From: Escherichia phage ERS-1
Length of the DNA: 64,000 nucleotides
Sequence record: PP337211
Reading direction: 5' to 3' (one strand)
Below, one piece after another: positions 1-64,000 of the stretch; the stretch's first letter is position 1; each line of letters begins with the position of its first letter. A model generated the notes under the pieces. That model was not told the DNA's origin and made no database searches. It saw nothing but the letters and a program-made list of their open reading frames with translations. Position numbers and translations under genes: made by a program.

Positions 1-173
1 GGAATTGAAAATGATTTGTGGTCATGAGAACTTGTACGAGTAAATGATTTATCTTTAGCATAAACCAAAGTTACTTCATGACCATTTTTAATAAACCAAT
101 CACGTTGCTCAAGAGAAAATTTAGTTACGCCACAACCTTCAAGACCTCGAGCCATAAAAATACATACTTTCAT
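1..173 (-). CDS. a-gt: alpha-glucosyltransferase, N-terminal 57 codons (T-even phage a-gt); gene runs off the left edge
   Basis: Minus-strand translation from ATG at 173-171 gives MKVCIFMARGLEGCGVTKFSLEQRDWFIKNGHEVTLVYAKDKSFTRTSSHDHKSFSI, recognised from memory as the T4 alpha-glucosyltransferase N-terminus; GAGGA RBS 6 nt upstream. Confidence 0.7.
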   Translation of the reverse strand, partial: MKVCIFMARGLEGCGVTKFSLEQRDWFIKNGHEVTLVYAKDKSFTRTSSHDHKSFSI

Positions 174-204
174 TTAATATCCTCATTGTTTTGGTTTATT
201 TTAC

Positions 205-244
205 CAAAAAATTTATAAAGCAATATAGGAGCCGAAGCTCCTAT
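205..244 (-). terminator. hairpin (taggagc-UUCG-gctccta on the minus strand) followed by a U-rich run; T4-style intrinsic terminator
   Basis: Inverted repeat 227-244 with cgaa/uucg tetraloop, T-rich tract downstream on the minus strand. Confidence 0.4.
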
Positions 245-414
245 CCGCATAATACACCATACAGAGGCTCATTAGAGCTTCTAAATTTTATACGCTTATA
301 TGTTATAGTTCCTTCCGCTTTAGCTTTATCATGCGCCTCTTTAAAGCGCCTCATCATTTCTACTTTAGAGGAACGAATTTTATTATAATCTATTTCAGAA
401 GTCTGGATGTTCAT
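241..414 (-). CDS. small hypothetical phage protein (57 aa)
   Basis: Minus-strand ORF MNIQTSEIDYNKIRSSKVEMMRRFKEAHDKAKAEGTITYKRIKFRSSNEPLYGVLCG read by hand; same polarity as neighbours; weak RBS; competes with the plus-strand track ORF 191..388. Confidence 0.3.
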   Translation of the reverse strand: MNIQTSEIDYNKIRSSKVEMMRRFKEAHDKAKAEGTITYKRIKFRSSNEPLYGVLCG

Positions 415-587
415 CTTTCACAGTTGCCACCATTTTTTGACTTGATAAGAATCAACCCACACTTTTATTAGGGTCTGCTCTTACAATAGGAGGATTAACT
501 TCTTTAATTGAACTATCGTGGTATTCTTTTTCAGAAATTTTCACGCAAAGATGACCATTCAAAGATTCAGTAAATCCTGCATTAATT

Positions 588-905
588 TTAAGACGCTTGA
601 ATTTTACGTGTGTAAGCATCAATCATATCCTCAATCTGCGATCTAGTAGTCTTCCAAAGAATACTAATAAGTTCATCGTTATATGGCTGTTTTAGAATAT
701 CCCGACTTTTCTTGATAGCATATTCGTATTGAGCAAAATTATTGTTTTCAGCTGCAATCTGAGCGTGCTTATAAAGACGGTTCAGTTCGCGTTTGTTTTT
801 AGACAATAACTTATTTGCTTTTCTTTCTGCTTCAAGACGGTTCTTTTCTTCAATAGAAGAAATAAGCTTTTCCACTTCATCATTAATTTCGGGTTTATCA
901 GTCAT
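588..905 (-). CDS. hypothetical T-even phage protein (105 aa)
   Basis: ORF track; AT-rich codon usage and polarity consistent with the neighbouring phage genes. Confidence 0.55.
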   Translation of the reverse strand: MTDKPEINDEVEKLISSIEEKNRLEAERKANKLLSKNKRELNRLYKHAQIAAENNNFAQYEYAIKKSRDILKQPYNDELISILWKTTRSQIEDMIDAYTRKIQAS

Positions 906-962
906 ATTATTTCTCTAATATAAAATAAAAATCATCATCTGTTAAATGATACCGATAGTTTA

Positions 963-1127
963 AAATTCTACACCATTAGATTTAAAAGCGGTATCATACG
1001 GATTTTCTGGATCAATATCAATGTCAAGAGCTAAAACTTCCCTGAGATACATTTTAAGTAAATAGGGAATAGCTTCAACTTCAGGTATTTCTTCCAAGAA
1101 TCCGGAGAGGTTAATCGTTAGCCTCAT
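963..1127 (-). CDS. small hypothetical phage protein (54 aa)
   Basis: Minus-strand ORF MRLTINLSGFLEEIPEVEAIPYLLKMYLREVLALDIDIDPENPYDTAFKSNGVEF read by hand; no clear RBS. Confidence 0.3.
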
Positions 1128-1154
1128 ATAAAAAATCCAAACTAGGAGAATCGT

Positions 1155-1667
1155 CTACAACACTTTTCTTTCAGCCCCCGGTGTTCTATAGGTTGATTCT
1201 TCGTAATGCGTCATTTTATCGTAGATGTCTTGAATAAAAGTTTCATCTACTAACGCAACCATATCGTCGTCACGGCTGTCATAGACATTGTGAACGAAGT
1301 AACTATATTTCTTTGCAACTTCCTTACGTTCTTTTTTAATACGTTGGACGAATGCATTAAAACAAGCTTGAGTTATATACGCATGTGGGTTTTTATATTT
1401 CGTTTCATCAAAATTATGAAGCCCCTTAATAGAAGCTTCTATACCATCTGCAATCATTTCTTGTTTCCAAGATTGGGTGTATCCTGAAAAGTTGAAACGT
1501 TTAGATAAGCCTTCTGCAATAAGCATAATGGCTAATCCGATAGTATCATTCTGACGAACTACTTTATTTGGGTCTTTATTATTTGCTAATTCTGTTTTCC
1601 AATCAATAATAGCTTGTAAAAGCTCTTTATTGTTTACGTAATTATATTTAGGCTTAGTTTCTGACAT
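1155..1667 (-). CDS. 55: late-transcription sigma factor gp55 (T4-like)
   Basis: ORF translation [31 protein letters not shown]... matches my memory of T4 gp55; GAGGTG RBS upstream of the ATG at 1667; C-terminal end may differ from canonical T4. Confidence 0.8.
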
Positions 1668-1749
1668 TTTCACCTCTTAGCTCAATTCATAGATCTATTA
1701 TATCATAATATTTGAAGATCTATCTTAAAGCATAGAGGATGAATCAATT

Positions 1750-1965
1750 TCACACATTCATTAAGTTAGCCGCTTCAAGAGCTGCATCTAGTGAATCAAA
1801 TTGATCGACATATTCAATCAATTCGCCATAATTAGCGTATAACCACCATTGGCTAAATTCATACTCAAGGATGAATCCATTTCCTTCAATTTGAGTTAAA
1901 CCAATGCAGTTTGTATTTACTTCATATCCGGCAAGACGCAAATCGTTAATAAGAGCTTCGTTCAT
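1750..1965 (-). CDS. hypothetical T-even phage protein (71 aa)
   Basis: ORF track; AAGGT RBS; tightly packed with the upstream ORF. Confidence 0.5.
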   Translation of the reverse strand: MNEALINDLRLAGYEVNTNCIGLTQIEGNGFILEYEFSQWWLYANYGELIEYVDQFDSLDAALEAANLMNV

Positions 1966-1967
1966 AA

Positions 1968-2168
1968 TTATACCTTAGCAATTTTTAGGTCTGCAAATTT
2001 TTTCTTGCGTTGATTTTTCATGCGACGAATAGTCTTATCGGAAATTTCATGCTTTTGATAAGCTTTAGATTCTACACCAAAAGCTTTAACATCAAATTCT
2101 GACAAGATATATTGAACCAACAATTCACGGACAGTATTGCGTCCAATTTTCTGATCATTCTGTTTCAT
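1968..2168 (-). CDS. hypothetical T-even phage protein (66 aa)
   Basis: ORF track; basic small protein, phage-like packing. Confidence 0.45.
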   Translation of the reverse strand: MKQNDQKIGRNTVRELLVQYILSEFDVKAFGVESKAYQKHEISDKTIRRMKNQRKKKFADLKIAKV

Positions 2169-2319
2169 CGTCTGATGAAGCTTTTTCCCATTTATCCAAA
2201 ATTTGAGGAGTTACAATATCGCCTTTTCTAGCAAAGAAACTACTTTATCATATGCGTAAGAATTGATGGCGTTTTTAATTTGAATAGTCATACATTATCC
2301 TCAATTTCATTAAAATTTT

Positions 2320-2345
2320 ATTATCCAAAAAGGGCCGAAGCCCTT
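2320..2345 (-). terminator. hairpin aagggc-UUCG-gccctt followed by a U-run on the minus strand
   Basis: Perfect 6-bp stem with cgaa/uucg loop at 2330-2345, T-rich tract downstream on the minus strand. Confidence 0.45.
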
Positions 2346-2546
2346 AGCTAAACTGTTTGGCACCCTTCCAGCCTTCGTACATCATTGCGGCTGATATTAA
2401 TATTGCTCCTGAGCAACTTGAATATTTGTGATTCCAAAACCAGTTCAGAAAAACTTACCGTCATCAATACCCTGGGCTATCATATTTTCAAAGAACTGGC
2501 GACGAGCTTCAGCAATTCGTTGTGATAATTTAGATTCAGGATTCAT

Positions 2547-2678
2547 TTAAATTTTCCAGTTACCGTTTTCATCAATGAATTTAATCCAGTCATTTACTGA
2601 CCACTTAGTCGTATCGCCTTTTGGAGCAACATTTAAAGTGTATAATCCTTGTTTAAAAAGCATTCGTTTGATATTCAT
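2547..2678 (-). CDS. small hypothetical phage protein (43 aa)
   Basis: ATG at 2678 preceded by GAGGAAAAT RBS; translation MNIKRMLFKQGLYTLNVAPKGDTTKWSVNDWIKFIDENGNWKI. Confidence 0.4.
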   Translation of the reverse strand: MNIKRMLFKQGLYTLNVAPKGDTTKWSVNDWIKFIDENGNWKI

Positions 2679-2685
2679 ATTTTCC

Positions 2686-2961
2686 TCAGCTGTAACGATA
2701 GCACTCGTTTGATTTACGCTTAGCAACTCGTTGAGAAGTATTGTAATCAAAATCATCGTCAATGTAAACTGATTTTTTCAACTTTCTTACTTCACTACGC
2801 AATTGACGGTTTAGCTCATCTTTAACTTCTGAATCAATGCCTTTCATTCTACGCCATTTATCAGAGCGAAAAATGTTTTCAACCATATCTTTATGACTTA
2901 CACCATCAGGAGCTTTACGCTTTCCGAAATAGTCATAATCACGTACTTTTAAATCTTTCAA
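2686..2961 (-). CDS. hypothetical phage protein (91 aa; TTG start in track, internal ATG possible)
   Basis: ORF track; its 3' part (2731-2807) is the source of the inverted 77-bp copy at 4781-4857. Confidence 0.4.
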   Translation of the reverse strand: MKDLKVRDYDYFGKRKAPDGVSHKDMVENIFRSDKWRRMKGIDSEVKDELNRQLRSEVRKLKKSVYIDDDFDYNTSQRVAKRKSNECYRYS

Positions 2962-2973
2962 CGGCGATACGTT

Positions 2974-3150
2974 TTACCCATGGAGTTTAATTTCCTTAGC
3001 AACTGAACTAAATACGGCACGATCGCAAATCATCTGTTTATTCCATTTAAGTACAGTATAATGAACATCTAGATCATCTACTGCTGTAACAATAACAATA
3101 TGTCCATTAACACGATAATACTGATCCCTTTTAATCTCTTTATCAACCAT
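2974..3150 (-). CDS. small hypothetical phage protein (58 aa)
   Basis: Minus-strand ORF MVDKEIKRDQYYRVNGHIVIVTAVDDLDVHYTVLKWNKQMICDRAVFSSVAKEIKLHG with TGAGGA RBS. Confidence 0.4.
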   Translation of the reverse strand: MVDKEIKRDQYYRVNGHIVIVTAVDDLDVHYTVLKWNKQMICDRAVFSSVAKEIKLHG

Positions 3151-3282
3151 ATCAATTCCTCAAAGGCAATTCATATGTTAATAATACCACAGTTTGAACT
3201 TCTTGTAAACAACTTTGTGAAAATTATTTTAGGGAACGATAAGAAGGGAACGATGGCTTAGAATGGTAATATACAGAATGTG

Positions 3283-3305
3283 AGAAAGAAAGGCCCAGAG
3301 GGCCC
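3283..3305 (-). terminator. short GC hairpin followed by UUUCUUUCU on the minus strand, just downstream of nrdH
   Basis: ggccc...gggcc inverted repeat at 3292-3304 adjacent to the nrdH stop (3309). Confidence 0.4.
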
Positions 3306-3308
3306 GTC

Positions 3309-3617
3309 TTAATCTTCTATGATATCTCTATCATATCCAAGTGAAATGAGAGTTTCTTTGAAGTGTTTAATGTTCTTTTGTCTAGAATCATTGATGAAAA
3401 TGACTGGATAACGAATGTTAAGAGATGTGAATCCAGCGCGTTTAGCAAGAGATACAATCAGTGGACGATCATACTCAATCTTACCATTATTTGTAAGAAC
3501 TTTATAGAAAGTAAAAGGAGCATTAAGCTCCTTTAGAAGTTTTGTAACTGATTGACATCCAGGACAACGACCTACTTCATCTGGAATTCCATAGACTTCA
3601 ATCTTGTTTTGTTTCAC
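3309..3617 (-). CDS. nrdH: NrdH-like glutaredoxin/redoxin (102 aa)
   Basis: CPGC redox motif near the N-terminus (GRCPGCQS), size and position next to nrdG as in T4; GTG start with AAGGA RBS. Confidence 0.7.
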   Translation of the reverse strand: MKQNKIEVYGIPDEVGRCPGCQSVTKLLKELNAPFTFYKVLTNNGKIEYDRPLIVSLAKRAGFTSLNIRYPVIFINDSRQKNIKHFKETLISLGYDRDIIED

Positions 3618-3619
3618 AA

Positions 3620-3832
3620 CTATTCCTTACTAAGAGCAGCATTCAGTTTGTTAGTAATTTTATCCAGACGCTCATTGAACTCGCTAGAAGACAGTCCTTT
3701 TTCTGGAGAAATCAAACTAATCACGAAAAATATAACAATAAAAGGAATAAGGAAAATAGCTCCAACTGTCATAAACAGAAAGAATGTTACAGTTGTAAGA
3801 AAATCAGCTAAACCTTTACGAAATTTATACAT
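3620..3832 (-). CDS. small membrane protein (70 aa), hypothetical
   Basis: Hydrophobic core FLTTVTFFLFMTVGAIFLIPFIVIFFVISLI in the ORF track translation. Confidence 0.45.
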   Translation of the reverse strand: MYKFRKGLADFLTTVTFFLFMTVGAIFLIPFIVIFFVISLISPEKGLSSSEFNERLDKITNKLNAALSKE

Positions 3833-3951
3833 ATTTTACCCTTAATTGATTAACCAAGCATTGATAAGCACTAAACTATACTGCGAATAAAATTCTGGAC
3901 CAAAATGAAAAATCATATCATTTATAGTGTCCACAATATAATTCAATTTAA

Positions 3952-4419
3952 TCATTTTCCCCACACCCCATCGGTATTTGACCAAAGTCGCTGATTATCT
4001 GATCCTCGCCACAACTTTTTGGTCGGAAGATTTTTCTCATACTTCCCATCAATAATAACATCAACATATTTAAGCATTTCTAGTTGTTTAATATCTTCAA
4101 ACTTATATCCTGTCCACAACCAAATGCTTTTATTGGGATAAAGATTTTTTACTGTTTGAACGATGCAATGAACAACATCTCGGTTATCAGGATAGAGAGG
4201 GTCTCCTCCAGTTATAGTTAATCCTTCTATATAATCATTATTCAAACATTCAATTAATTGCTCCAGTGTTTCACCAGTGAATGGAACGCCATTTCTAGCA
4301 TTCCAAGTACTACGATTATAACAACCTTCGCATTTATGCAAACAACCTGTAACGAAAAGAACGACCCTGCAACCAGGGCCATTCACAAAGCAGCACGGGT
4401 ATATTCTGTCATAATTCAT
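3952..4419 (-). CDS. nrdG: anaerobic ribonucleotide reductase activating protein (radical SAM), NrdG
   Basis: CLHKCEGC (CxxxCxxC) radical-SAM cluster motif; translation matches my memory of T4 NrdG. Confidence 0.85.
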   Translation of the reverse strand: MNYDRIYPCCFVNGPGCRVVLFVTGCLHKCEGCYNRSTWNARNGVPFTGETLEQLIECLNNDYIEGLTITGGDPLYPDNRDVVHCIVQTVKNLYPNKSIWLWTGYKFEDIKQLEMLKYVDVIIDGKYEKNLPTKKLWRGSDNQRLWSNTDGVWGK

Positions 4420-4446
4420 TGGTGTTTAATCCTATGCATGATTTCT

Positions 4447-4677
4447 TTATTTTTGCCTAAGATTAAATCCGCGTTCGTTCGGATTTCCCAAATATCCGCA
4501 TGTTCTTCTTATTGTGTTCATCTTTTTAGGATCAGTTTCTCCACAAATAGAACAAACAAACCCGTTTTCAGTAGGAGTCATTTCATGGGTACTTCCACAC
4601 GTAAAACATTTATCTACTGGCATATTAACGCCAAAATAATCTAAATGTTGTGCAGCATAATCCCATAGGTTCATGCC
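4447..4677 (-). CDS. nrdD: anaerobic ribonucleotide reductase NrdD, C-terminal ~76 codons only (5' part of gene absent)
   Basis: CxxC...CxxC zinc ribbon and glycyl-radical motif RRTCGYLG; upstream in-frame sequence is a poly-A tract and repeat, not NrdD. Confidence 0.7.
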   Translation of the reverse strand, partial: GMNLWDYAAQHLDYFGVNMPVDKCFTCGSTHEMTPTENGFVCSICGETDPKKMNTIRRTCGYLGNPNERGFNLRQK

Positions 4678-4780
4678 TTTTTTTTTTTTTTTAGGTGCTG
4701 TCGATTCTGTTTGTAGTCGTCTGTTTAACCTTAGCAATACTAACTGAACCAAGTACAAAACAGTCAATTGCTAAGGTTAA
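4678..4780 (+). repeat. J-unit copy 1: T15 + aggtgctgtcgattctgtttgtagtcgtctg + perfect 14-bp palindrome arms (ttaaccttagcaat / attgctaaggttaa) around a 28-nt loop
   Basis: Directly read; ~85% identical by eye to the unit at 25997-26098; arms identical in both copies while the loops differ. Confidence 0.8.
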
Positions 4781-4857
4781 GTCAATTGCGTAGTGAAGTA
4801 AGAAAGTTGAAAAAATCAGTTTACATTGACGATGATTTTGATTACAATACTTCTCAA
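4781..4857 (+). repeat. perfect inverted copy of 2731-2807 (internal fragment of the T4-like ORF 2686..2961)
   Basis: 77/77 nt identical to the reverse complement of 2731-2807 by manual comparison. Confidence 0.85.
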
Positions 4858-4922
4858 CCAGTTTAAGTTTAAATTAATCTTTTGAGGTTTGTCGGAACAA
4901 TTTATATTAAACTGGTTCTTTT
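4858..4922 (+). other. hairpin (ccagttta ... taaactgg) followed by ttcttttt; terminator-like but with a 41-nt loop
   Basis: 8-bp inverted repeat 4858-4865 / 4907-4914 and downstream T-run. Confidence 0.3.
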
Positions 4923-4927
4923 TAAAC

Positions 4928-4971
4928 AGGTGCTGTCGATTCCGTTTGTAGTCGTCTGTTTAACCTTAGCA
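4928..4971 (+). repeat. left 31-bp inverted repeat of block A (aggtgctgtcgattccgtttgtagtcgtctg) plus ttaaccttagca half-site
   Basis: 30/31 identical to 4693-4723 and to the reverse complement of 25689-25719. Confidence 0.8.
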
Positions 4972-5002
4972 TATGTCTAATGTCGAAGCCACACACCACC
5001 GC

Positions 5003-5850
5003 CAGAGTTAAAGGATCGACTCCCATGGAACACCAGCACCTTCGGCATCAAGCTGAGCAAGATCTTCCCGTGGCTGGTTCAGGAAGGAGCTGCCGGGATC
5101 AATCGACTTCCCGTGGCGGACCTCCTCAACGCGCCCGGAAGGTGAACAGGCCTGCGCATGACCTTCGCCCAGCTCCGTCCAGGATGACCTGGCGGTGAAC
5201 GGTCGCCTTGGCGGGACGTTCAACCTGCTTCGCCGCCGGAAGGATGACGAAAGCGACGGGACCGCGGGCGCCGCCGCACGGGCGACTGTCCGTGAATGCC
5301 CGAACCTCCCTGGCCGGCTCGGCATGAGTTCGCCCTTCACGTGGTGGGGCCTTCCACCTCCCGGAGGAAGGCCGGGCGTCTGGGCGTCCGGACGATGTCA
5401 CCTGCCTGGAGCTGCGGCGGCGGCTCGTCACGCCTGCTCGGCGAAGGACCTGATTGGTGGGGCCTGGCTGTCTGGGTTGAAGCCCGGGACAGGTACTGTA
5501 CGAACACCGAGCATCCGAGGACCCTCCGGTGATGGTGGACATGGCGGGGATCAAGCGCAAGGACGCCAAAGGAAACTACCTGGGCCGTCCTACGGGATGG
5601 GCGGGGCGAAGATGTGCCTGGGCTCGGGCTCCCGACGATGATGGCCGTGCGCGGCCCCCGCTTCCGCTGTTCGACGCGGCACCTGCCCGGAGGGTCGGCG
5701 CCTGGTCGCGGAAGGGGCGCGGAGGTTCGAGGCCGCGGGGCCGGAGGGTCAGGCCCTCCTGGACACCCTCCACCCGGGTGCCCGTTCGCATCGGAGAAGC
5801 TGGCGAAGGCTTGCGAAGCCCGGGCGAAGGCCGTGGGCGGCGTCACATGA
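5003..5850 (+). pseudogene. first coding region of block A, hypothetical protein, frame lost repeatedly
   Basis: Protein-like stretches in three frames in succession (LPWNTSTFGIKLSKIFPWLVQEGAAGINRLPVADLL; DDLAVNGRLGGTFNLLRRRKDDESDGT; MVDMAGIKRKDAKGNYLGRPTGWAG; FASEKLAKACEARAKAVGGVT-stop at 5850). Confidence 0.35.
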
Positions 5851-6619: not shown

Positions 6620-6838
6620 ATGAGCGAACGTCAAGACCGCCTGGGACCGCCGCGATGTTGGGCTGGCCGGTCGTCGCGGGCTGGAAGGGGTGATCAAGGT
6701 CGGAGCCGTCCTGGTCGGCCGGGCGGTGGCGCGGCTTCGACCGGGTTCAACGGCTTCCCGCCCGGTGCGATGACTCGCCGGAGCTGTACGCTGACCGCGG
6801 TGTACCTGCCGTCGGTGGCGGAGGCGTTGGCTCTTTAG
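6620..6838 (+). CDS. hypothetical protein start with strong RBS (GAAGGAGGAGGTGAA-ATG); downstream frame drifts
   Basis: AGGAGG 6-8 nt before ATG 6620; N-terminus MSERQDRLG, then protein-like sequence continues in another frame (DRRDVGLAGRRGLEGVIKVGAVLVGRAVARL). Confidence 0.4.
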   Translation: MSERQDRLGPPRCWAGRSSRAGRGDQGRSRPGRPGGGAASTGFNGFPPGAMTRRSCTLTAVYLPSVAEALAL

Positions 6839-9800
6839 GCTCGCCTGCGACGGCTTCGCTCTACATTCTTTCCCTGCTGTCCGAACTGTATGGAGGCCGC
6901 GGGGAAGGCGGGCGTGAAGCGGGTCGCCTTCCCGGTCGACTACGGGCTGCGATCCGGGGTGGGTTGCTGAGTGGAATTCGACGGTTGATGAGGCTTTGGA
7001 AGTCGCCCGCCGTTAGGGGTTGAAGCGAGGTGGGTAGATGTCTGAAGCCGGGCGCGGGACTCCCTCCGCCCCGTCATCCGGTCGCTGGACCCGGTGCGCG
7101 TGGAGAACCCCTTTCGCGCCCGGGACCCCGGATGTGAACTATGCCGGGCTGGATTGAATTGAAGTTCGCTGAACGCTGGCCGCCCTGGGCGGACCGCTTC
7201 CGAGTGGACCGACTCCACCTGCCCAGCACCTGGCTCACCCGTCGCCGGGTGCCGGGGCCGGGCCTTCCTCCTGCTGAAGGTCGGGAGACGGAGTGGTTGC
7301 TGATTCGATGGAGCGGTGGCCGCTGCGACGCCGGGCCGGGTTCCGCGAGAACGCCTGTATGAGGTCTGCGCTGCCGTTGGATGCCTTCCAGAAATGAGGA
7401 GATTTGTAAATGTCGCCGCGGTGAGGCGGGCGGAAGGTGAAAGCCCACCGCTACACCGCCGCTGGCAGGGTTGAACCAAATTGAGGCCGCGAAGGAGTAC
7501 GGGGTCCTTGCACCGCTACCGTGATGGGAAGCGGACCGCCGCCTGGACGATGAACCGTGCCTGTCCCGGCGAGGTCCGAGCCCGAGGTCTGCTTGCTGTT
7601 CCGCCGCCGCTCGGGCAAGACCTGCGCGAAATCGCCGCCGCTCTGGGCTGACTCGCCTCGGGTTGTCCAGATGGCAGGACGGAAAGCGCCGGTTGAGCGC
7701 CTTCGTGAATATTGGGGCTTTTGAGGGGGATCGGAAATGGCGGAACTGCCGAAGTGGAGACGAGGATGGTTGACTTCCTGAAGAAGCGGTGCCGGAGGGG
7801 CCGTGGGTCCTGACGGCCATCGTCCGGACGGGAAAACGGAGACGGTACCGTCTTGTTGCCCACTGCTTAAGGCCGCGGAGTGGATCGAGGGCATCAGGGC
7901 AAGCGGGCCCCGGATACTTCCTCGCCAACCCGGCTCCGCCGGGCGATGGACGTGAAAGCCTCGAAGGAGGGATGGCCCGCCTCGCCTGGCTTCGCGTCCA
8001 CCCCGCGAGCCGGGAGGACTTCGAGGAGGAGCGGGCGCGGGCGCTCAGCTGCTCCGGTCTGACCGCCGGAGCCGGCGGTCATCGTTGACTCGGGCGGGGG
8101 CTATCCGGGCTTTTGGCGTCGAACCCGTCCGAGGCCTGGAGATTGCTGGATCGGCGGCGAAGGCTGGAGCTGGAAGCGTAGGTGTTCGGCTGGAGAAGGT
8201 GTTTCAGGCGGACCAGTTGCCGGCCACGTGGACCGCATCATGCGCCTCCCGGGCGATCAACATGCCCCGCGAAGAAGGTGGAGAAGGGTCGCCTGCCGAC
8301 CCTCGCCCGTCTGCGTGGAGTGGAATGAGGCCGCTACCCCATCGAGGTTTACCCCCGCGGTTCGAGTCCAGATGGCGGAGCAGGGCCTGGCCGGGGGCCG
8401 TCCGAAGGTGAGATTGGGGCACGTCCGGAGGTTCGGGGACGGAGGAGCTGCGGAGCGGGCCCTTTAGGCGCAAGGCCATCCGTTACCCGCGCTGGCGCTG
8501 ATCGCTACTGGGCAGGGACCCGCCGGACCGACCAAGTACCCCTCCCGGTCGGAAGCCCTGTTCGGGTGCTCGCTGCGACCTCGTGCGGGCGGAGGTCCCT
8601 GATGAACGACTTCGCGGGTGATCGCCGGCTTCGGCGAAATCGCCGCGCAGCCTGTCCGGTAGGGCCCAACTGGGAAGGCTACGCCTGCGGGGGTTCGAAC
8701 GTGCCCTTGAGGAGGCGGTGCACCCTCGGCCTGGGCGGACCAGAAAGCTCGCCGTCGGTGGAGGTTGGCGGAAGTGCCGGGCGGTGAGGTCTGGGACCCG
8801 GCGATGAAGCGGTACGGGTCTGGGGGTCCTTCGAGGACTTCCGGCACGCTACCGCCGGAGGTAGTGGTTGGTCGGAGGAGGGGGTAGCCGTTGAGAAGGC
8901 CGCGGGAGCCTTCTGGATCGATCACCCGTGCTGCCCGGCACGAGACGGTTGGTTCGCCCCCGGCCTGAGGTCGAAGAAGCCTATGCCTCTGGCGCGGGTT
9001 CGCGCGCGATCCTCCCGGCGAGAGCTGCGCCCTCCCGGCACCTTCGTGAGGGCGCCGCCGGGGAACCCGGCTACCACGGTCACCTGGTCGGGTGGATGGC
9101 GCGGATGGTCCCGTTGCACGGCCCGGCGAGTGGCCGTGGTCCTCCGCGGTCGCCGCGGGCCGGGTTCTCTTCCTTCGCCGGTAGTCCTGGCGCGATGTTC
9201 GGGGGCGTCACGACTTCCGGCTTGCGACGAGCTGGTGGGCTCCTCAAACGCTTACCTTTGCATACCGTCCTGCTGTTCGGTGATGAGGCTTTCTTCGCCG
9301 GGAGGAGGCGAAAGCGTGCCGAGACCTCGCGACCGAAGAACGCCTGGTGATCGAGGGTAAGGGCGTGGACGCGGAAGCGGCCCCAACCATGTCCCTGGTC
9401 CTCGCCTCGAACGAAGATTGGGCGGTGCCCGCGGGTCTGGATGAACGCCGGTCTTCGTTGGTGGAGGTGGCGAGGGCCCGGTGACCCCGCCTGATTTCAG
9501 CGGTTGGGTGATGATCTGGAGGGCGCAGGACGCAGCCCGCCCCAGCCTTTCTCCCACCTATGACCTGAGCGCCTTCGAGGTTCGCCAGTTAACCGGGCGC
9601 TGCAGGACCAGAAGATCATGAGCATGTCGCCGGAAACCTGTGGATGTATGAGAAGCTGTGGGAGGGCCGGTCGCTCAAAGACCGACCAGGACTGGCGAAG
9701 CAAGGTGGTGAAGGACAGCTGCTGCCGCATGACGACGACGCAACGACCTCCGCGACCAGGGCCGGAACTTCCGCATGAGCCGCACCCGGCTTCGGCGGCT

Positions 9801-21825: not shown

Positions 21826-22490
21826 ATGTCCCTGGCTGAGTTCGAGGACCGCGTGGCGGATCCCCTGCCTCATCGTGGTCACCACCGGGAGCCCTGACGT
21901 GCCCGCGAAGTGCTGCGGCCCGCCTGAAGATCGCTACCCGGCGGAAGGCGGATGCGGTGAATGGGAAGTCCGCGACCGCCGCGGACGCCCGCCCCCTGGC
22001 CTGGAGCGGGGTATGACGGAGGCGGAGCGCGAAGCGGTTGACCTGGCCGTGTTCGATCCGTGCGGAGGACCGGCGATGACCTGCGTGCGCGTCCCCGGGG
22101 GTCGCTTGCCGTCGCCCTCTTCCGGCTCCGCCTCGCGGACGGCTCCTGCGCGTCGGAGCCCTGCCACCTGCGGGCTGCCTCTTCCGCGACCGGCGGCTGG
22201 CGTCTTCACACGAGTGGTGGAGGACCCCTGCGATCTGCGCCGCCCTGGACTGGTCCTTCAACGAGGAAAACGGGCCGACCGCCCTCGCCGCGGGATGCCC
22301 CGCCGGGTGGTCCCGCGGTGCCGACTGGTCGAGTCGGAGGCCGAAGGCTGCGGAAAACCGGCGGGCTCCCCCTCCTTCTCCCTTCCACCGGGTGCGCTTG
22401 GGTTACGGGAGTGCGCTTGGGTTCGGCTCCAAAAGTATGAAGGGGTGCGTGGCGGGAAGTTGTAGCCGTCTGGGGTTCCTGCCTTGCGCT
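21826..22490 (+). pseudogene. hypothetical protein, last gene before island 1; frame-disrupted
   Basis: GGGAGGTGAACG-ATG at 21813-21828 (MSLAEFEDRVADPL then stop); protein-like text resumes in other frames (GMTEAEREAVDLAVFDPCGGPAMTCVRVPGGRL; ICAALDWSFNEENGPTALAAGCPAGW); stop at 22488-22490. Confidence 0.35.
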
Positions 22491-22597
22491 TAGGTTACTT
22501 GGGATTCTTACCTGAAACAAATTTGCCCAGGGTTGACCCGGCGGACCGGCCTGAGAATCCTTGTTGAGGCTTCCGGCTGTCCGAGGGCTTCCTGGGG

Positions 22598-22700
22598 CTA
22601 AGGTAAGTAAGTTAAGTAAGTTAAGTATCTATCTATCTATCTATCTATAAAGGGCTGTTTTATATGGCCTTTTTGCCCGCTTGACTTTTTACTTTTTCGG
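22598..22700 (+). promoter_or_regulatory. island 1: AAGGTAAGTAAGTTAAGTAAGTTAAG (stops in all three frames) + (TATC)6 microsatellite + TATAAA + TTGACT + T-rich run
   Basis: Directly read; AT-rich intergenic module between the 22490 stop and the SD+GTG start at 22927; homologous inverted copy at 63420-63515. Confidence 0.7.
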
Positions 22701-22926
22701 ACGTGGAAGTGAAGCGCGACCCCTCGAACCTAAGCGGAGGACGCCGCGTGCCTGCTTGGGTCTGTTGCCCGTCGCTCCCGCGCCTCCCCCGCGGGCGAGC
22801 GCGACCCGCCCTTGGCGAACGCAGGCTTCGCCAGACTCGCGGCGAGGATGTCCTTGGGCGTGAGGCCGGGACGGATCGCCGCGTGATGCGCGATTGACGG
22901 GCGGTGCTGCCCAAGGGGGAGGTGAT

Positions 22927-24000
22927 GTGCCCATTGAGAAACTGAAGCCGAAGCCGATGGTGCCCTTGCCCTTGGATGGAAGCAGTACCTGGAGTTGTTC
23001 CGCACGTCCCGACCTGGGTGGGTGGAAGTACCGTGCGCGGAGGCGTGGGCGTCTCCGGCTCCGCCGTTCCACTATGCCGTTGAAGAATGACCCGGAGTTT
23101 GCCCTGGCTCTGCAGGACGCCCGCCAAGCGTGGATTGATGAGATCCTGTTGCGCGGCCCTGAAGCGGGCGCGGGACGGCGCGGCAGCGCCCGATCGGTCG
23201 GGGAAGTTCAAGGACGAAATTATTGGATGAGCGGGTGTACTGTGATTCGCTGATGGCCTTGACGCTCCGCGCCCGCCGTGCGGAGTTCGGGAGGACGGGA
23301 GGACGTGGCCTGTATCACTGCCCTCGGCCCGGTGGGCGCCGATCGTCCCGGGCCCCGGCGTCGACCGGACGACTGGGAATTGTTTGGGACCTCGCCCGCG
23401 GGACCGTGGGCCGTCCGACCGGGAGGGCGATGTTCGCCTGGTCCCAAGCGGGCAGGCGGTTGCCATCGCCGCCCGCCCGGACTACCCGATCGAGCGGCGC
23501 GAGGCGGAGCCCGGCGAGCTGCGGGCACCACGTGGACCCGGAGACGGGAAGGAGTCGGAGGCGACCTGGTGCGGGTACGGGTTGCAGCTCGCCTTCCTCG
23601 GCGTCCCGATCTTCGAGGTGCTGTATGAGGGGACGCGCGGCCCGGGCAAGACCGACTGCCGATGGACTTCCTCCAGCACGTGGGGAAGGGCTACGGTTGG
23701 AGCGGCGGGGTCCCCGTTCCGTCTGGCAGGGACCCCCGCTGTCGGACGTGATCAGACACAAAACCAACAAGTGGTTCAAGCGTTTCTTCCCGGCTAAGTA
23801 CAGGCAAGGTGGGTTGGCGACCTTCCCGGCACGGCGAGGAGCTGCTGCTGTGTCGGCGGTCGCCGGAGGATTATTGGAACTACCCACGGCCACGTGCCCG
23901 TGGATTGGCTGGGAAGAACTCTTGGGCTGGGCCTGACAGCGCCACCGTTGCGACGTCCTGCCGCCGCTCCCAAGCCGGGGATGCCCCGCCGCGACCCGGG
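22927..24000 (+). pseudogene. P-loop NTPase-containing coding region (copy 1), candidate packaging/terminase-like ATPase, frame-disrupted
   Basis: GGGGGAGGTG RBS then GTG 22927; Walker A GTRGPGKTD at 23630-23656; further protein-like segments in shifting frames (MPLKNDPEFALALQDARQAWIDEILL; DFLQHVGKGYGW; SDVIRHKTNKWFKRFFPAKYRQGG). Confidence 0.35.
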
Positions 24001-25688
24001 CGACCGGCCCCACGGCCCCGCCCCTGGCTGGGTCAGGCCCGCTCCCGCCTCCCCCGTTGCGCGGTCGGGTGATCCTGGACGCGATGCGAGACGGCGAGCG
24101 CGAACCGCCCCGGGTCGCCTTCCCGGTTCCTTTCCCATGAGAACCGGGTTGCTCCTCGCTGACCCGGAGGGCCTGGTATTCGAGCCGCGGCCCGGAACCC
24201 CTCCGACTCGCCGCCTGGCTCCACGGCTCCTGCAGGTTGTTTGCGGGAGGATGTTGTACGAGGCTTGCACCGCGGGACGCACCGCGGCGCCCTCCGTCCC
24301 GCTGTCGGTGATCCCGAAGCGGTGGAAGATCGACCTGCGGCTTCCACCGGGCCGGAGCCCTTTGCCGTCCTGTGGTGGGCGGAGTCGAATGGGAGCCGTT
24401 CGAGCGGAATGGCCGCGTGTACGGAAGGTGCGGGGGCGATCTGTACCTGATCCTGTAGCGGGTACGGCTGGAACGGGAACGCGAGCAGGGCGTCCTGCGG
24501 CTCGCCTCGGAGGTCGCCCAGTGGGTGAAGGACCGGGAGGAGGATTGGGCGCTGGAAGGTCGGGTCAGCCCTGGCCCCCGCGACCTTCTCCTCACGTGGA
24601 GGTATGGGGCCTGGATTGCTGTGGAGGCGGAGAGAGGGTGTGCGCCTGGACGCCCGCGGGAGGCTGGGCTCGCGGGTGGGCTGGGAGGGGTTGGCTGTCG
24701 GAGGGCGCTGCCTCCGGCGGCGGGGACCGCGCCAGGTCCCTGGGCTGTTCGGTTTTTTCGACCCGTGCTGGTGTCGTCCAGACGGTCCCGCGCTGCCCCG
24801 CGATGAGGTGTACCTGGGATGACGTGAAGGCGGAGGCGGAGGACCGGTTGGTGACGCGACCGCTACCGCGTGCGGGGTAAGCTGCGTGGTGCGGTGGTGG
24901 CCCGCAGAGGCTCGGCCGGGTCCTCGCCTTCGGGCGAGAATCCGCGAACCTGGAGAACCGACGGCCGGCGAGACGGCAGCCCTGCCGACCTGCGGGGCGT
25001 ATTAACCGCGCTCCCGCGCTGGCCCACGCTCCAGACGCCGCCTGGGCGGGACCGAAGGGCGCGCGAGGCGGGCGAGACGTACCTACCCCGCCCTCGGAGG
25101 AGACGGCAGGGTGGGCTATCGGGAGCGCCTGGCCTCCGCCGCTCCTCCTCGGCGGTTGAACCTGGGCGCCTGGACCTGCCCTGCAGCGGAGCCCTTTGCC
25201 AGCCGATCAAGCCGGCCAGGACGTGCCCGGAGGCGATCCAGGAGATGATCCTGCCTGACGTGGACCTCCTGGGGCTGCCCACGCGTTCGCCCGTCCTGTG
25301 GTTCCGCCAGCCTATCCGGTGAGGCCCTGGCCTCCTCGTCCAGACCGCCTCGCCCGGCCCCGCGGAGGATGGCCTACCCGGACCTGGCGGATGACCGCCG
25401 GGAGGGCCTGCGCCCTGACTGGGTGATGATCCAAGCCGGAGGCGCCCGCTGTTGGCCCGGTCGGAGGTGATCAAATGGGGCCCGAGTCCTCTGCGTGCTG
25501 CTGTCCAAGTTACGAGGCGGAGGCAGGACGGCTTCGCGCAGGCTTGGGAGCGCTGTCCGCGTCCTGGAGCTGGGCCTTGTCCCGGCTCTGGCAGCCGGTG
25601 AGAAGTTGGTGGTCCCGCAAGGAGGAGTGGGTGCTGGCGGATGAGCGGGCCATGGGGCTGAACCACGTCCCTGTGGTTGCCTTTACGC

Positions 25689-25719
25689 CAGACGACTACA
25701 AACGGAATCTACAGCACCT
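25689..25719 (-). repeat. right 31-bp inverted repeat of block A (reverse complement reads aggtgctgtagattccgtttgtagtcgtctg)
   Basis: 30/31 match to 4928-4958 in inverted orientation. Confidence 0.8.
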
Positions 25720-25725
25720 GAGTAT

Positions 25726-25771
25726 GTATTGCTAAGGTTAGAGGGAAACACGATAGAATCCAACAGCACCT
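25726..25771 (-). repeat. partial J-unit, variant b, inverted (aggtgctgt-tggattctatcgtgtttccctc-taaccttagcaatac on the minus strand)
   Basis: Shares the aggtgctgt head and taaccttagcaatac tail with the J-units; middle resembles the 26008-26040 variant. Confidence 0.7.
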
Positions 25772-25996
25772 AAAAAGGTTCAACTTTTTACTAAATAATA
25801 AATGTTGTAGTATCTTCTTAAAACGAAAAATTTAATTTGCTTTAAAACCTTCCCAATTTTTTTTGCCTTTTTTTAACATACGTCAGAACATGGAAGAATG
25901 GTGGCCGTTTTTTACACTGTGAAGAAACAATTTTGAACTTTTAAATGACTTCCATTTATATTGTTTTAATTTCCTTTTTTCCCGTTTGTTGTTAAT
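25772..25996. other. AT-rich spacer without a convincing ORF, phage-like (T-even-like) composition, T-runs
   Basis: Sharp GC drop between two GC-rich blocks; only very short ORFs; ends in a T11 run leading into J-unit 2. Confidence 0.4.
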
Positions 25997-26098
25997 TTTT
26001 TTTTTTAGGTGCTGTTCCGGATTTATCGTGTTTCCTGATTAACCTTAGCAATACGTAACTGAACGAAGTACATAAAAACACCAATTGCTAAGGTTAAA
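25997..26098 (+). repeat. J-unit copy 2: T11 + aggtgctgt + variant spacer + 14-bp palindrome arms around a 32-nt loop
   Basis: Same architecture and arm sequence as 4678-4780. Confidence 0.8.
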
Positions 26099-26099
26099 A

Positions 26100-27216
26100 G
26101 GTTACACAAACCCTGGACAAGCAGCACCCTCCCTTTGCGGTGTTCTCCGGCTCCGCCTTGTCCTTTGAGAGCGGAGGGGTGTCGCTTGTTGATGCAGCGG
26201 GCGATGGCGAACATGGACCAGAGGTGCGGGTGGTCCGCGAGGGCTGACGGATGCTTCTCGTCCGGTCCTGGTCCCACCCTTCCGGTTGGCTCCTGGAAGA
26301 TGTTGGGTACTGCCTGTTCCAGACCGGGTCCGCGGTCGGGCCGGGGCTTCCCGGCCTTGCGGTCCGGTAGATGTCGCGCCGGGCCTTCAAGGCGGCGACG
26401 TCGTCGACGCGCGGGGTGGTCGGTGCTGGGTCCTGGTCGGGCCCTCCGATGACGGCCTTGATGTCCTTCAGGGCCGTCTCCCTGTGGATGTCGCGGACCG
26501 TCTCGCCGTCCGCCAGGGCCTCCCGCGGACCTGGGCGATGGCGCGGTGCTTGTTGGTCCTTCCCTGGTCCTCCTCGACGGGCTTCCCGCCGTCGCGCTCC
26601 TGGATGTGCTTTGGCTTCCAGCGGCGTGTCCTGAAGGCCGGGTCGCCGCCGTTCGCCTTCGACCGCCACCCTGCGTTGGTACCTGTAGATGGTGCTGATG
26701 GCCGCCCTCAAACCTTACCGCCTTCACGTCCGGGTCCCGCCCAACCAGCTCCGCGACGGCCTTGGCGGCGGCTTGGGTCTTGATCCGGTCTGGGCCGGCG
26801 GTGGTCGCTCCGGCGGCGGCGGTGTAGTCCCCGATGATGGCGATGCCGTCCGGGGCGTGTTGCCGGGATCGGCTTGTGGTCCGGGGACGATGACGTTGAT
26901 GACGCGGGCGGATCGCGGGCCAGGCTGCGCGGGGGTGTGCTCTGCCGGAGCCGTATGCCCTGCCCGTCGATGTACTTCGGTTGGTTTTCCAGTTTGGTTG
27001 AAAACGGCGGAGCCGGAGCCCCCGCCTGGGGTTGCTGTTGGACCCTGCGCGATCGGATGATCTTGCGCTCGCCGCCGTCCTCCTCCGGCGGGGCTGGTTT
27101 CCCGACCTCTGAGTCTGGGCGAGCGGCCTTCGCCGCCCCAGGTTCCGAACCGCGGGCTCGGCTCGTCGTCGTCCGCGCGGTGGAGACCTGGCCGGTGGGG
27201 GGCGGCTTCCCCTCAC
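26100..27216 (-). pseudogene. hypothetical protein, frame-disrupted
   Basis: Protein-like segments in two minus frames (DGIAIIGDYTAAAGATTAGPDRIKTQAAAKAVAELVGRDPDVKAV; EALADGETVRDIHRETALKDIKAVIGGPDQDPAPTTPRVDDVAALKARRDIYRTARPG). Confidence 0.3.
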
Positions 27217-59843: not shown

Positions 59844-61999
59844 CCTCCCCTTCGGCGGGTCTTCTGGCCGGGTCGGTGCCGGAGCTGCGCGGCCCATCGC
59901 CTCGCCGATCTTCCTTCTGCCCTCCCCTCGTCCGTTGAAGTCCTCCGGCAGGACCCCGCGGCGGAGGCCGTTCGGGTGCCCCGCGGCGACGTCGCGCTTC
60001 TCGCGTGCGACTTGGAGGGCCTGAAGGCCCGGGGCGTCCGTTTTTCCGTCAGGCTCCGGCCTGCGCGCCGCCGTTCGGCCCAGGCGGAGCCGTTCGCGGT
60101 GATGTCCAGGGCCTGGGCCGGGCGTCCTCGAACTGCCCGTTGTCGCGTTCCGTCGCCGGTCGCCTCCGCGCTGTCCGGCGCCGGGCGGTCGCCGTCGCCC
60201 GCCGGTCTGCGCTTCGGGAACTCCGCGCCAGGCCCGCCCCTTCCCGCCTCGGGTGTCCTTGAGGTCCGTGCGGCCCGCGGCGATGGCTTGGCCGGTGTGC
60301 TCACCAGAGAACCGGCCCGCCGGGTCCGGGTTGGGCCCTTGTCCGGCCTGACCACGGCCGGGTCCCAGTCCTCCCCGCACGCCCCCGAGGCGAGGATCGG
60401 GAAGCGGGAGACGGTGAGGATGTGGCGTTGGTCGGAGGAGGACTGCCTGTGAGCCACGTCCGTTGAGGTGAGCCGTGTCCGGGAGCGGGGGCTTGCCCGG
60501 CGAAGCCTTGGCGGTCCGCGTAGAAGGTGACCTGTGGGACGGGTAGTTCTGGCCCGTCGCCCCTTCCTCGCCCTTGCCCCCTTCTGGGCGTTGGACTTTT
60601 GCCGGCTCCCGGCTGAGGCCCGGCTCCGGACGCGGATGCGGCGCTTGGCGTCTCCGCGAAGCCGTCCTGCTCGGCGTAGTGTTCGATGATGCGGACGTGC
60701 TGGAGGACTTCACCCCGTCGATCACCTCTGACCGGGCGGCTGGGGTCGGCTCTGATCAGATCCTGTACGGGCGGTGCTCTCCCGGCGGTCCTTTGCGGGT
60801 CCGGGGTTGGCCGTCCTCCCGCGGGGCCGGGCGGGGGTCGATGAGGACGTGGCAGGGCCTTGCCTTGCCTTCGCGAACCCTTGATGGGCCAACGTTTGTC
60901 GTTCCCCGCAGGTTCCTTGTTGGTGATCGTCTCCAAATTGCCTTGGGCACGTCTCGCCTCCAGCTTGATCGGCTCGCTGAGGGCTTGCCGCTCTGGGCGT
61001 CCGCGTCTGTTCGACCTTGTTGAGGAGGACGGCGGAGGCCTGGTGCTCCTGATAGCCCTTGTCCGTCTCCCTCCTGGTGGCGGGTACGCTCCGCCCGCCT
61101 CGCGGATCGTTTGCCCCGCCTGGTCTCCATGACGTGCCGTGCGGAGGTTGGGCGTCGCCCCCGCTGGTCGTGGCGGGGGGCTCTTCGGGCTTTGTCGGCC
61201 GGTTGGTTCTCCTGGTTCGCGGATCTCGCCCGAAGGCGAGGACCCTGGCAGTTGCACCGAGGTTGCCCTGCTTGACGCGCGTGGCTCGTGCGCGGTAGCG
61301 GATCGCGTCGGCGTGGTCCTCCGCCTCCGTGTTTGTTGTCCGTCCTCGTCGTCGTGGGGGGGGGACCGTCCGATGGTCTGTGATGCCTGTCGAAAGACGG
61401 GACCTGCCGGGACCTCGCGCGGTCCCCCGCCCGCCGGAGGTAGTCGCCCCCCAGGCTCGCGGATTCGCTCCTGCCTGCTTGCGCGAGCCTGGGCCTCGTC
61501 CGCGGGCGTCGGCGACGCCCTTCCTCTCCGTCTGGCGGCGATGCCGTCGCCGTTCTCCCGTCGAAGATGGAGGAGCTGCGGGGCCGGGCTGACCCACCTT
61601 CCGGCGCCCAGCCCCTCCTCCCGGCCCTTGCCCTTGGGCGACCTCGGAGGTGAGGCGCGGATGCCCTCGTTGCGCGTTCCGTTCCTGCCGTACCGCCCTG
61701 GAACGGGTGATCGCCCCGCCTTCCCGGCCTCGCGGCCGTTCCCCTGGAACGGCTCCCCTTCCGACTCTGCCTCGGCGACGGCGAAGGGCTTGCAGCTGCC
61801 CCGTCGAAGCCGCGGCGACTTTCACCGCTTCGGGATCGCCGATGGCGGGACGGAGGGCGGGTGCACGTCCCCGCGGTAGATGTCGTCGGTGTCCCTTCCC
61901 GCGCAGACGCCCCAGGAGCCGTGGAGCCGGCGGCGAGTTCGGAGGGGTTCCGGCCGCGGCTCGAATCTTGCCGATGTACTCCGGGCGGCGTGGGGGTAT

Positions 62000-63190
62000 C
62001 CGGTTTTCGGCACGGACCGGTGGATGGCGACCCGGGGCGGTTCGCGCTCGCCGTCTCGTCGCGTCCAGGATTGCCCACCGCGGCTGTGGGGAGGCGGAAG
62101 CGGGCCTCTGACCCTGTTGTGGCCGGGGCCGTAGGGGTTGGTGGTCGCCCGGTAGCGGGTCCCGGCTTCGCGGGAGTGGTGGTGTCCGTTAATGGCGAGC
62201 CCCGCCGTCGCCCGTTGGTGCTCTTCCCGCCGGTTGCGGATAGGCGTGGCCGTGGCAGTTCAATCCTCCGCGACTTCTGGCGCCCTGCTCCTCGCCGTCC
62301 GGGAGGTCTTCTGTGCTCCCCTTGTTGTACTTGGCCCCCGGGAAGATGCGCTTGAACCGTTGGTCTGTCGATCGCGTCTGAGGGCTGGGGTAGGTCTGAC
62401 GGGGAACTGTATGCCCCGCCTCTCCACCCGTAGCCCTTCCCCCGCGCTGGAGGAAGCCTTCCCTGGTCGGTCTTGCCCGGGCCGCGCGTCCCCTGCCTCC
62501 CTCGAAGATCGGGTGCGCCTTTAGGAAGGCGAGCTGCGACCCGCACCGGCCCTTCCCTGTCGCCTCCGACTCCTTCCCCCGTCTCCGGTCCGCGGCAGCC
62601 CTGGCTCGCCGGGCTCCGCCTCGCGCCGCTCGGGTTCGGGTAGTCCGGGCGGGCGGCGATGGCGACCGCCTTGTCGGCTTCGGTTCGAGCGGTCTTCCTG
62701 CCGCCCTCCCCGGTCGGACGGCCCGACGGTCCGCGGGCGAGGTCCCCGGGTCTGGTTCTGCCGTCGTTGATCGTGGCCGGAGCCCCCGGGACGATTACCC
62801 CGCCGGTGCCCGAGGTGGTTGCTGGCCGCGTCCTTCCCGTCCTTGAACTCCTGCGGTGGGCGCGGAGGCTGATGGCGCGAGTGAATCGCTGGCACCCTCC
62901 GCCGGTGATGATTTCGTCCTTGAACTTCCCGCCGATGATCGGCGCTCCGCCGCCCCGCGCCCGCTTCAGGCCGCGCCGGAACCTGGTGCCGGCTTTGTCG
63001 CTCGGCGGGCGTCCTCCAGGGCCTGGGAACTCTCGGTCCCTTCCCCGGTGATAGTCGATGGTGGAGCCGGAGACGCGGCCTCCGCGGTGTATTCCGCCCT
63101 CCCGTCGGGACGCGTGCGGAGGGCTCCTGGCACCTGCTCCTTGCGGTCCGAGGTGAAGGGCCCTTCGGCTCCGGCTTTTGGTCTTCCTGG
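62000..63190 (-). pseudogene. P-loop NTPase-containing coding region (copy 2), inverted paralogue of 22927-24000
   Basis: Walker A GTRGPGKTD at 62465-62491 (minus); flanking AVAIAARPDYP, GKFKDEII and KGYGW segments are shared with copy 1. Confidence 0.35.
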
Positions 63191-63419
63191 TTGCGGTTCG
63201 CTCCCCCTTCGGCGTGTACTGTTCGTCGGTTGTGCTGCGTGGCCACCCGTCCCGGCCTCGGTCGGGCTTTCCCTCGCCGCGAGTATAGCGTGAGCTTGGG
63301 CAATAGCCAAGGGCGGGTCGCGCCCGCCCGCGGGGAGAGGTCGAGGAGCGTGTGGGCGGATTGCCGGCAGGCGCGCAGCGTCCTCCGCTTAGGTTCGAGG
63401 GCTGCGTTCCACTTTCGTC

Positions 63420-63515
63420 CGAAAAAAAAAAAGTCAAGCGGTAAAGGTTAAAAACCTGCCCTTTATATACAGACAGACAGATAGATACTTAACTCACTAA
63501 CTCACTTACCTTAAC
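63420..63515 (-). promoter_or_regulatory. island 3 (inverted copy of island 1): GTTAAGGTAAGTGAGTTAGTGAGTTAAG + (TATC)2(TGTC)3 + TATATAAA + TTGACT + T11 on the minus strand
   Basis: Reverse complement aligns base-for-base with 22560-22700, with substitutions and a different microsatellite composition. Confidence 0.7.
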
Positions 63516-64000
63516 CCCCTGACAGCCCTTCGGACAGCCGAAACCCTCAGTGGTGATTCTCTGGGCGGTCCGCCGGGTCGATTTGTCGGCAGAATTTATT
63601 TCAGGGTAAAGATCGAAGGTAACCTAGCTAAGGACGTGAACCCCAGACGGTTTGACCTCCCGCCTCGCCTCGCTTTCTCTTTTCGGAGCTGAACCCAGTG
63701 CATTTCGTAACCCGGGAGGTTCCCGGTCACGGAAGTGGAGAAGGAGGAGGGAGCCCCGCCGGTTTTCCGCTGGCCTTCGGCCTCCTGTAGCGAAGTCGGT
63801 CGATTGCCGCCCGGCGGGGCATTCAGGGGCGGGCTGCCCAGGTGTCGACCTGGATGGAAGGGGGTGAGGAGCCGCCCCGGCGGGCCTCCAGGTGGAGGGG
63901 AGGGGGTGGTTGTTGACGTAGGTGGAGCGGGGCGGTGGAATTGAGGGCGGCGTCCTCCGGGTCCCACGCCGCCCTCGACGGCCTGTCATCCCAGGTCGGT

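Follow-up and report, generated by a model that had tools for sequence, protein, structure and literature searches.

The abrupt end of nrdD in a 64-kb phage sequence is an artefact of concatenated nanopore reads and untrimmed adapters

The cut that seems to remove most of nrdD from this T4-like sequence is an artefact of nanopore read concatenation and untrimmed adapters, and no genuine feature of a genome. The window, i.e. the whole stretch of 64,000 nucleotides that we analysed, almost certainly consists of five or more Oxford Nanopore reads strung together, which retained their barcode and adapter oligos and came from a multiplexed native-barcoding run of phages. This one sequence holds at least five inserts, from unrelated phages, together with three or four different sample barcodes. 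The oligos can be identified and their arrangement followed, homology to known phages ends at definite points, and the segments differ in origin and in error profile. The nrdD gene of the phage itself is not truncated. A library fragment merely begins there, at a random fragment end.

The minus-strand ORF at 4447-4677 encodes ...CFTCGSTHEMTPTENGFVCSICGE...RRTCGYLG, i.e. the zinc ribbon and the glycyl-radical motif of NrdD. Its peptide matches the Pfam families Gly_radical (4.3e-14) and NRDD (1.8e-12), and in its alignment with residues 523-592 of NrdD from phage GiZh (605 aa) 69 of 70 residues agree. The first-pass annotation, made from the letters alone, had seen this 3' part of nrdD correctly, as it had the poly-A run on the coding strand followed by a repeat unit (T15 on the plus strand at 4678-4692, with the unit at 4694 and again at 4929) and the abrupt end of the T4-like synteny a-gt/55/nrdH/nrdG/nrdD next to unrelated sequence. 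It had put an exact breakpoint at 4677/4678. The end is indeed abrupt, but its position is another: the alignment with the best T4-like references goes no further than 4667 and leaves 4668-4677 unaligned. These 10 nt on the minus strand have no match in T4-like references; they are read-start noise and make the spurious ATG of "MNLWDY". The Met is no start codon, since the references read GLEAVWDY at this site. At the break GiZh has ...KGLEAVWDYAAQ..., where the window has GMNLWDYAAQ, and the reference sequence runs straight through. Hence, what looks like a Met start is noise from the very beginning of a read. The reference phages continue past the break with a complete gene, which goes against the idea of a gene cut off in the source phage.

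The other end of the ORF is misleading too. The stop at 4447 is false, a single nucleotide inserted near 4458 having shifted the frame. The true C-terminus, GKNKEIMHRIKHQ*, lies in another frame at 4416-4457, with the true stop at 4416, and the true end of nrdD overlaps the start of nrdG by 4 nt (4416-4419), as it does in phages KFS-EC3 and GiZh. The nrdD 3' fragment therefore spans 4416-4667 on the minus strand, about residues 522-605 of the 605-aa protein, or about 84 codons with the frameshift instead of the last 76 or so that had been counted. A complete nrdD of about 605 aa was not found in the window, where only 4416-4667 aligns, frameshifted at about 4458. The gene is incomplete because the read starts there; this is no property of the phage.

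A break in nrdD naturally calls to mind the group I intron of T4. The nrdD gene of T4 (sunY) is split by an intron carrying I-TevII, and one might think that the break marks this intron or the I-TevII homing site, with exon 2 alone kept. The fragment resembles T4 nrdD in its C-terminal zinc-ribbon and glycyl-radical part, and the order of the genes is that of T4. Yet, the window holds only about 84 of the 605 codons and, as was first noted, no intron sequence. In T4, exon 2 measures 1,280 nt, counted from the stop codon, and only then comes the intron (at about 6816-7850 of the T4 locus L009). The homology of the window ends at L009 5784, i.e. about 250 nt from the stop and some 1,030 nt short of the intron boundary. 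In addition, the nearest relatives have an intron-less nrdD of 1,818 nt. The alignment to T4 thus speaks against a break at the boundary between exon 2 and intron: the break is unrelated to the intron site, and the chance that the intron explains it is negligible.

What follows the break had been called foreign sequence. It is an oligo of the Nanopore native-barcoding chemistry, and then a Y-adapter. The repeat is a 45-nt unit, GGTGCTG-TCGATTCCGTTTGTAGTCGTCTGT-TTAACCTTAGCAAT, present at 4694-4738 (one mismatch) and at 4929-4973, 235 nt apart, and matched in none of 100 shuffled windows. Its core TCGATTCCGTTTGTAGTCGTCTGT is the barcode BC02 of Oxford Nanopore. With the GGTGCTG flank, BC02, BC04 and BC05 are published as Nanopore barcodes (PMC10354226, Table 2), and the flanks of the Native Barcoding kit are AAGGTTAA and CAGCACCT (PMC11630701). 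The Y-adapter has a 60-nt top strand with a leader and a 22-nt bottom strand that lacks it (PMC9965538; the adapter sequence is also in PMC11533379). Since the repeat unit is a barcode and adapter oligo, the break marks where a library fragment ends.

Three classes of kit oligos are found when the minus strand is aligned to them. Oligos of the leading type, AAGGTTAA-barcode-CAGCACCT, occur at three sites (40/40 at 4967-4928, 39/40 at 4732-4693 and 37/40 at 26046-26007). Those of the trailing type, GGTGCTG-24-nt barcode-TTAACCTTAGCAAT, are represented with BC02, BC04 and BC05, the last two aligning at 25770-25728 (BC04, 42/45) and 26128-26084 (BC05, 45/45). The Y-adapter is represented by its top strand, ...TTTTTTTTTTAATGTACTTCGTTCAGTTACGTATTGCT, at 26047-26074 (27/28), where the adapter AATGTACTTCGTTCAGTTACGTATTGCT has a single mismatch, and a copy with more errors occupies 4733-4766. 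A fuzzy scan for barcodes found BC02, BC04 and BC05 clustered at 25688-26121. In the long inserts the same scan found no further credible adapters, and we took a match with five errors at 52374 as due to chance.

The oligos separate inserts of different phages, and all the following elements lie on the minus strand. The T4-like inserts are at 1-4667, 4781-4927 and 25772-25994. Next to the break, the run at 4678-4692 (T15 on the plus strand, A15 on the strand that was read) stands between the insert and its leading barcode flank. The leading native-barcode oligo that belongs to the T4-like read 1-4667, AAGGTTAA-NB02-CAGCACCT, takes up 4693-4732, and 4733-4766 holds the Y-adapter top strand together with a piece of the T-rich leader (TGACTGTTTTGTACTTGGTTCAGTTAGTATTGCT), as in the published reference (PMC9965538). 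There follows, at 4767-4780, TTAACCTTAGCAAT, a trailing flank that has lost its barcode and belongs to the preceding read. This preceding read is a short and separate T4-like one at 4781-4927, of which 4781-4877 is the gene 55.5 region (L009 3300-3218 in T4; 93.9% identity to T4-like phages) in the orientation opposite to that of 1-4667. Its own leading oligo, AAGGTTAA-NB02-CAGCACCT at 4928-4967, is the second copy of the repeat unit. Garbled adapter and leader sequence, AGGTGCTG and a BC07-like barcode (5011-5033, with five errors) fill 4968-5041, the last two ending a Pseudomonas-phage read, with the phage alignment running from exactly 5042. The second cluster of adapters, at 25689-26128, surrounds a T4-like read of about 220 nt (25779-25846 matches gene 59). 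It comprises, in ascending order, GGTGCTG-BC02 (29/30), the BC04 end flank, the gene-59 read, a run of A12, the NB04 start flank, the Y-adapter top strand with leader and the BC05 end flank. Some of these oligos do not stand in the canonical way, a point against a simple chain of reads: the GGTGCTG-BC02 oligo at 25689-25718 abuts the Yuavirus insert without a TTAACCTTAGCAAT tail, the TTAACCTTAGCAAT at 4767-4780 has no barcode, and the barcode at 5011-5033 does no more than resemble BC07.

The layout of the second cluster indicates which strand passed through the pore. On the minus strand, 26083-26047 reads TGGTGTTTTT-ATGTACTTCGTTCAGTTACGTATTGCT, i.e. part of the leader and the top strand of the Y-adapter, and directly before the TGGTGTTTTT leader stands GGTGCTG-BC05-TTAACCTTAGCAAT, truncated after AGCAAT. 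This layout, 26128-26047, is the end of one read and the start of the next. At 4780-4693 the same layout recurs with more errors. Since the top-strand leader is on the minus strand, this was the strand that went through the pore. The pore met the T4-like sequence 1-4667 at about 4667 first and proceeded from there toward position 1. The miscalls in the Yuavirus reads give independent support to this assignment: if the minus strand was read, the worst-called base is T, as expected of M6-like phages, and if the plus strand was read it would be A. We also considered the plus strand as the read strand and rejected it: at 26047-26084 its sequence does not stop with the 22 nt of the bottom strand but goes on into what is the top-strand leader in reverse complement.

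Such joins are known, in-silico chimeras having been described among the artefacts of nanopore sequencing (bioRxiv 10.1101/2021.02.21.432182). Most likely, several molecules would have passed through one pore in rapid succession and the software would have left their reads unsplit. The unsplit read would then have been used unchanged, or joined by an assembler to the end of a T4-like contig. That the reads were left unsplit, as opposed to joined by an assembler, is what we infer. In pore order the chain consists of a Yuavirus read with BC05 at its end, a short T4-like read flanked by NB04 barcodes, a stray BC02 oligo, the 20.6-kb Yuavirus read, a short T4-like read behind an NB02 barcode and, last, the Y-adapter, AAGGTTAA-NB02-CAGCACCT, A15 with 10 noisy bases and the T4-like fragment. 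The first good base of this last fragment just happens to fall 84 codons before the end of nrdD. The window shares with unsplit nanopore chimeras that have adapters in their middle the unrelated inserts and the succession of a trailing flank truncated after AGCAAT, leader and top strand of the Y-adapter, and leading flank. At 26128-26047 on the minus strand, a truncated trailing adapter is followed at once by the leader and adapter of the next read, between a Yuavirus and a Tequatrovirus insert, as expected of an in-silico chimera. The window differs from such chimeras in the unusual length of the chain (five inserts or more, with three or four barcodes), in the partial or misplaced oligos and in the homopolymers that T4-like inserts show behind their leading barcode.

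Could the fragments have been physically joined instead? Ligase might have linked pooled barcoded fragments and adapters during library preparation, one molecule then going through the pore. Native barcoding makes this a ligation-based library, the known class of ligated chimeras is commoner in ligation preparations (10.1101/2021.02.21.432182), and the odd partial oligos at 25689-25718 and 4767-4780 could be by-products of ligation. Yet, at 26047-26098 the flank is truncated after AGCAAT and then comes the non-complementary arm of the leader with the full top strand of the Y-adapter. An arm of a Y-adapter in the middle of one continuous strand corresponds to no ligatable configuration, and a separate read would end in just such a truncated trailing adapter. 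We thus regard physical ligation as unlikely, and favour reads that were left unsplit.

The part of the window beyond the break is Pseudomonas-phage sequence of raw quality. The GC content is 33-35% over 1-5000 and 64-73% across the remaining 59 kb, rising from 0.35 to 0.69 at about position 5000. A first Yuavirus read, similar to M6, YuA and PaSz-4, lies at 5042-25687 on the minus strand and has 80-83% identity to PaSz-4 25008-46605. The second, at 26130-64000 on the minus strand, comes from the opposite strand of the genome and has 80-83% identity to Yuavirus phages. Matches include PaSz-4, Chuck, PAE1 and M6-like phages, with a strong bias toward deletions and with broken ORFs. For the long ORFs of the GC-rich part, Pfam scans gave next to nothing, because the reads are rich in frameshifts. 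The Yuavirus segments thus have the error profile of raw reads, and the adapters embedded between them are nearly perfect. The two reads overlap over about 3.2 kb (22286-25472 against the reverse complement of 60720-63831) with 70.7% identity. This is as expected of independent noisy reads, both from one genome or from two that are nearly identical, although their barcodes differ (BC05 for one, the BC07-like barcode at 5011-5033 and the partial BC02 oligo at 25689-25718 for the other). The top match of the nrdD region (OQ992558.1, Escherichia phage L14) and that of the GC-rich part (OQ992557.1, Pseudomonas phage Chuck) have consecutive accessions, and Chuck is from Orange County wastewater. 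This suggests that the window comes from a similar multiplexed run of phage isolates, the identities being too low to claim that its phages are L14 and Chuck themselves.

One could take the join at face value: illegitimate recombination, a mobile element or cloning would have brought foreign high-GC DNA into a T4-like phage that lost most of nrdD. Synteny ends abruptly, the GC content jumps, and T4-like genomes are mosaic in this region: the homing endonuclease gene mobC lies between nrdG and nrdD in T4 (L009 4907-5539) and is absent from the window, from KFS-EC3 and from GiZh, the latter two having an uninterrupted nrdD of 1,818 nt. But the junction is made of commercial sequencing oligos with several different sample barcodes, and the "foreign" DNA consists of two overlapping, opposite-strand and error-laden reads of one Pseudomonas phage and forms no coherent insert. 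Moreover, none of the 821 matching phage records spans the junction, i.e. covers at least 80% of 3900-5100, and searches for the exact junction gave no match in viral, metagenome and genome contig collections. Nor did the NrdG protein or the 75-aa NrdD fragment have an exact match when they were looked up. A real rearrangement, biological or engineered, is thus very improbable, and the junction is best read as a technical one between concatenated reads.

The T4-like part is far cleaner than the Yuavirus parts. Positions 1-4667 on the minus strand, a Tequatrovirus read or consensus that carries the 3' end of a-gt, gene 55, 55.x, nrdH, nrdG and the 3' end of nrdD, are 96.6-98.3% identical to phage KFS-EC3, with mostly transitions and about 15 indels; ime09 and others are similar. 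This quality may mean that 1-4667 is an assembly consensus and that an assembler contributed to the join. Single-base indels at about 4458 and 3959 are absent from GiZh and KFS-EC3, and the ORF of gene 55 (1155-1673) has 172 aa from a GTG start where relatives have a 558-nt gene (about 185 aa). These indels and the shortened ORF show that the T4-like sequence is unpolished.

The starts of the T4-like reads have a peculiarity of their own. In pore order, all three begin with an A-rich stretch that cannot be aligned (4668-4692, 4878-4927 and 25847-26006), and in two of the three a pure A15 or A12 directly follows CAGCACCT. The A12, at 25995-26006, is similar to the A15. To our knowledge, neither run is part of any kit oligo. 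The only Pseudomonas-phage read that begins inside the window (from 25687 downward) has no A-run at its start. The A15 after the leading barcode is probably a base-calling artefact, and the A-rich starts may come from base-calling at the entry into glucosyl-hmC DNA.

Residues of this kind are not confined to the window. The same adapter and barcode sequence, over 33-66 nt, is present at the end of the record or within about 10 nt of it in seven unrelated GenBank phage records (OR487170.1, at positions 1-66, OR809231.1, OP583595.1, PQ039555.1, OP583592.1, OQ378339.1 and OQ790081.1), and two of these matches overlap annotated features. Adapters at the ends of unrelated records are as expected of technical residue, and the trimming of such residues from a phage assembly has been described (PMC9965538). 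In deposited genomes with residual adapters, these stand at the terminus of a contig, whereas here they are internal and bridge different phages. All this is a matter of quality control only. Untrimmed nanopore barcodes can mimic a dramatic truncation of a gene, and also a junction of horizontal transfer between a coliphage of 35% GC and a Pseudomonas phage of 68% GC. Sequences should be screened for GGTGCTG-N24-TTAACCTTAGCAAT, AAGGTTAA-N24-CAGCACCT and the Y-adapter before a breakpoint is interpreted. ORFs called across the join, e.g. one of 106 aa at 4447-4767 and the "MNLWDY..." start, are artefacts, and most ORFs between 5 and 64 kb are disrupted by read errors.

The break itself yields nothing new. 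The only potentially interesting biology in the window is unrelated to it and lies in the errors of the Yuavirus reads. In both, T on the read strand has the fewest correct calls, 60-69% against 81-92% for the other bases. The miscalls are concentrated on T before G: the thymines of CTG, ATG, GTG and TTG are correct in 19-32% of cases and those of NTC in 87-93%. In the 3.4 kb that both reads cover, the T of TG has an error rate of 80-83% in the read of that strand; in the read of the opposite strand the rate is only 25-28%, and at other positions it is 14-15%. We looked for the same effect in the T4-like part and saw none there.

These TG-specific miscalls fit a putative hypermodification of thymidine in the DNA of M6-like Yuavirus phages. 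Thymines in TG make up 27-36% of all T. For M6, the published share of T present as 5-(2-aminoethyl)-dU is about 30% (PMC5889632). Resistance to restriction had suggested a TG or TC context for the modification (PMC6449724), and none of the papers covered by our literature search links 5-NedU to a motif derived from nanopore data. We consider it an even bet that M6/YuA-like phages install 5-NedU, or a relative of it, at essentially every TG, and not at TC, TA or TT. If so, the miscalls would be single-molecule evidence that sharpens the looser "TG or TC" motif obtained from restriction resistance, and the 5-hmdU DNA kinase would read the G that is the 3' neighbour of its target. More generally, the TG miscalls suggest that raw nanopore error spectra may serve to map the motifs of DNA hypermodification in phages.
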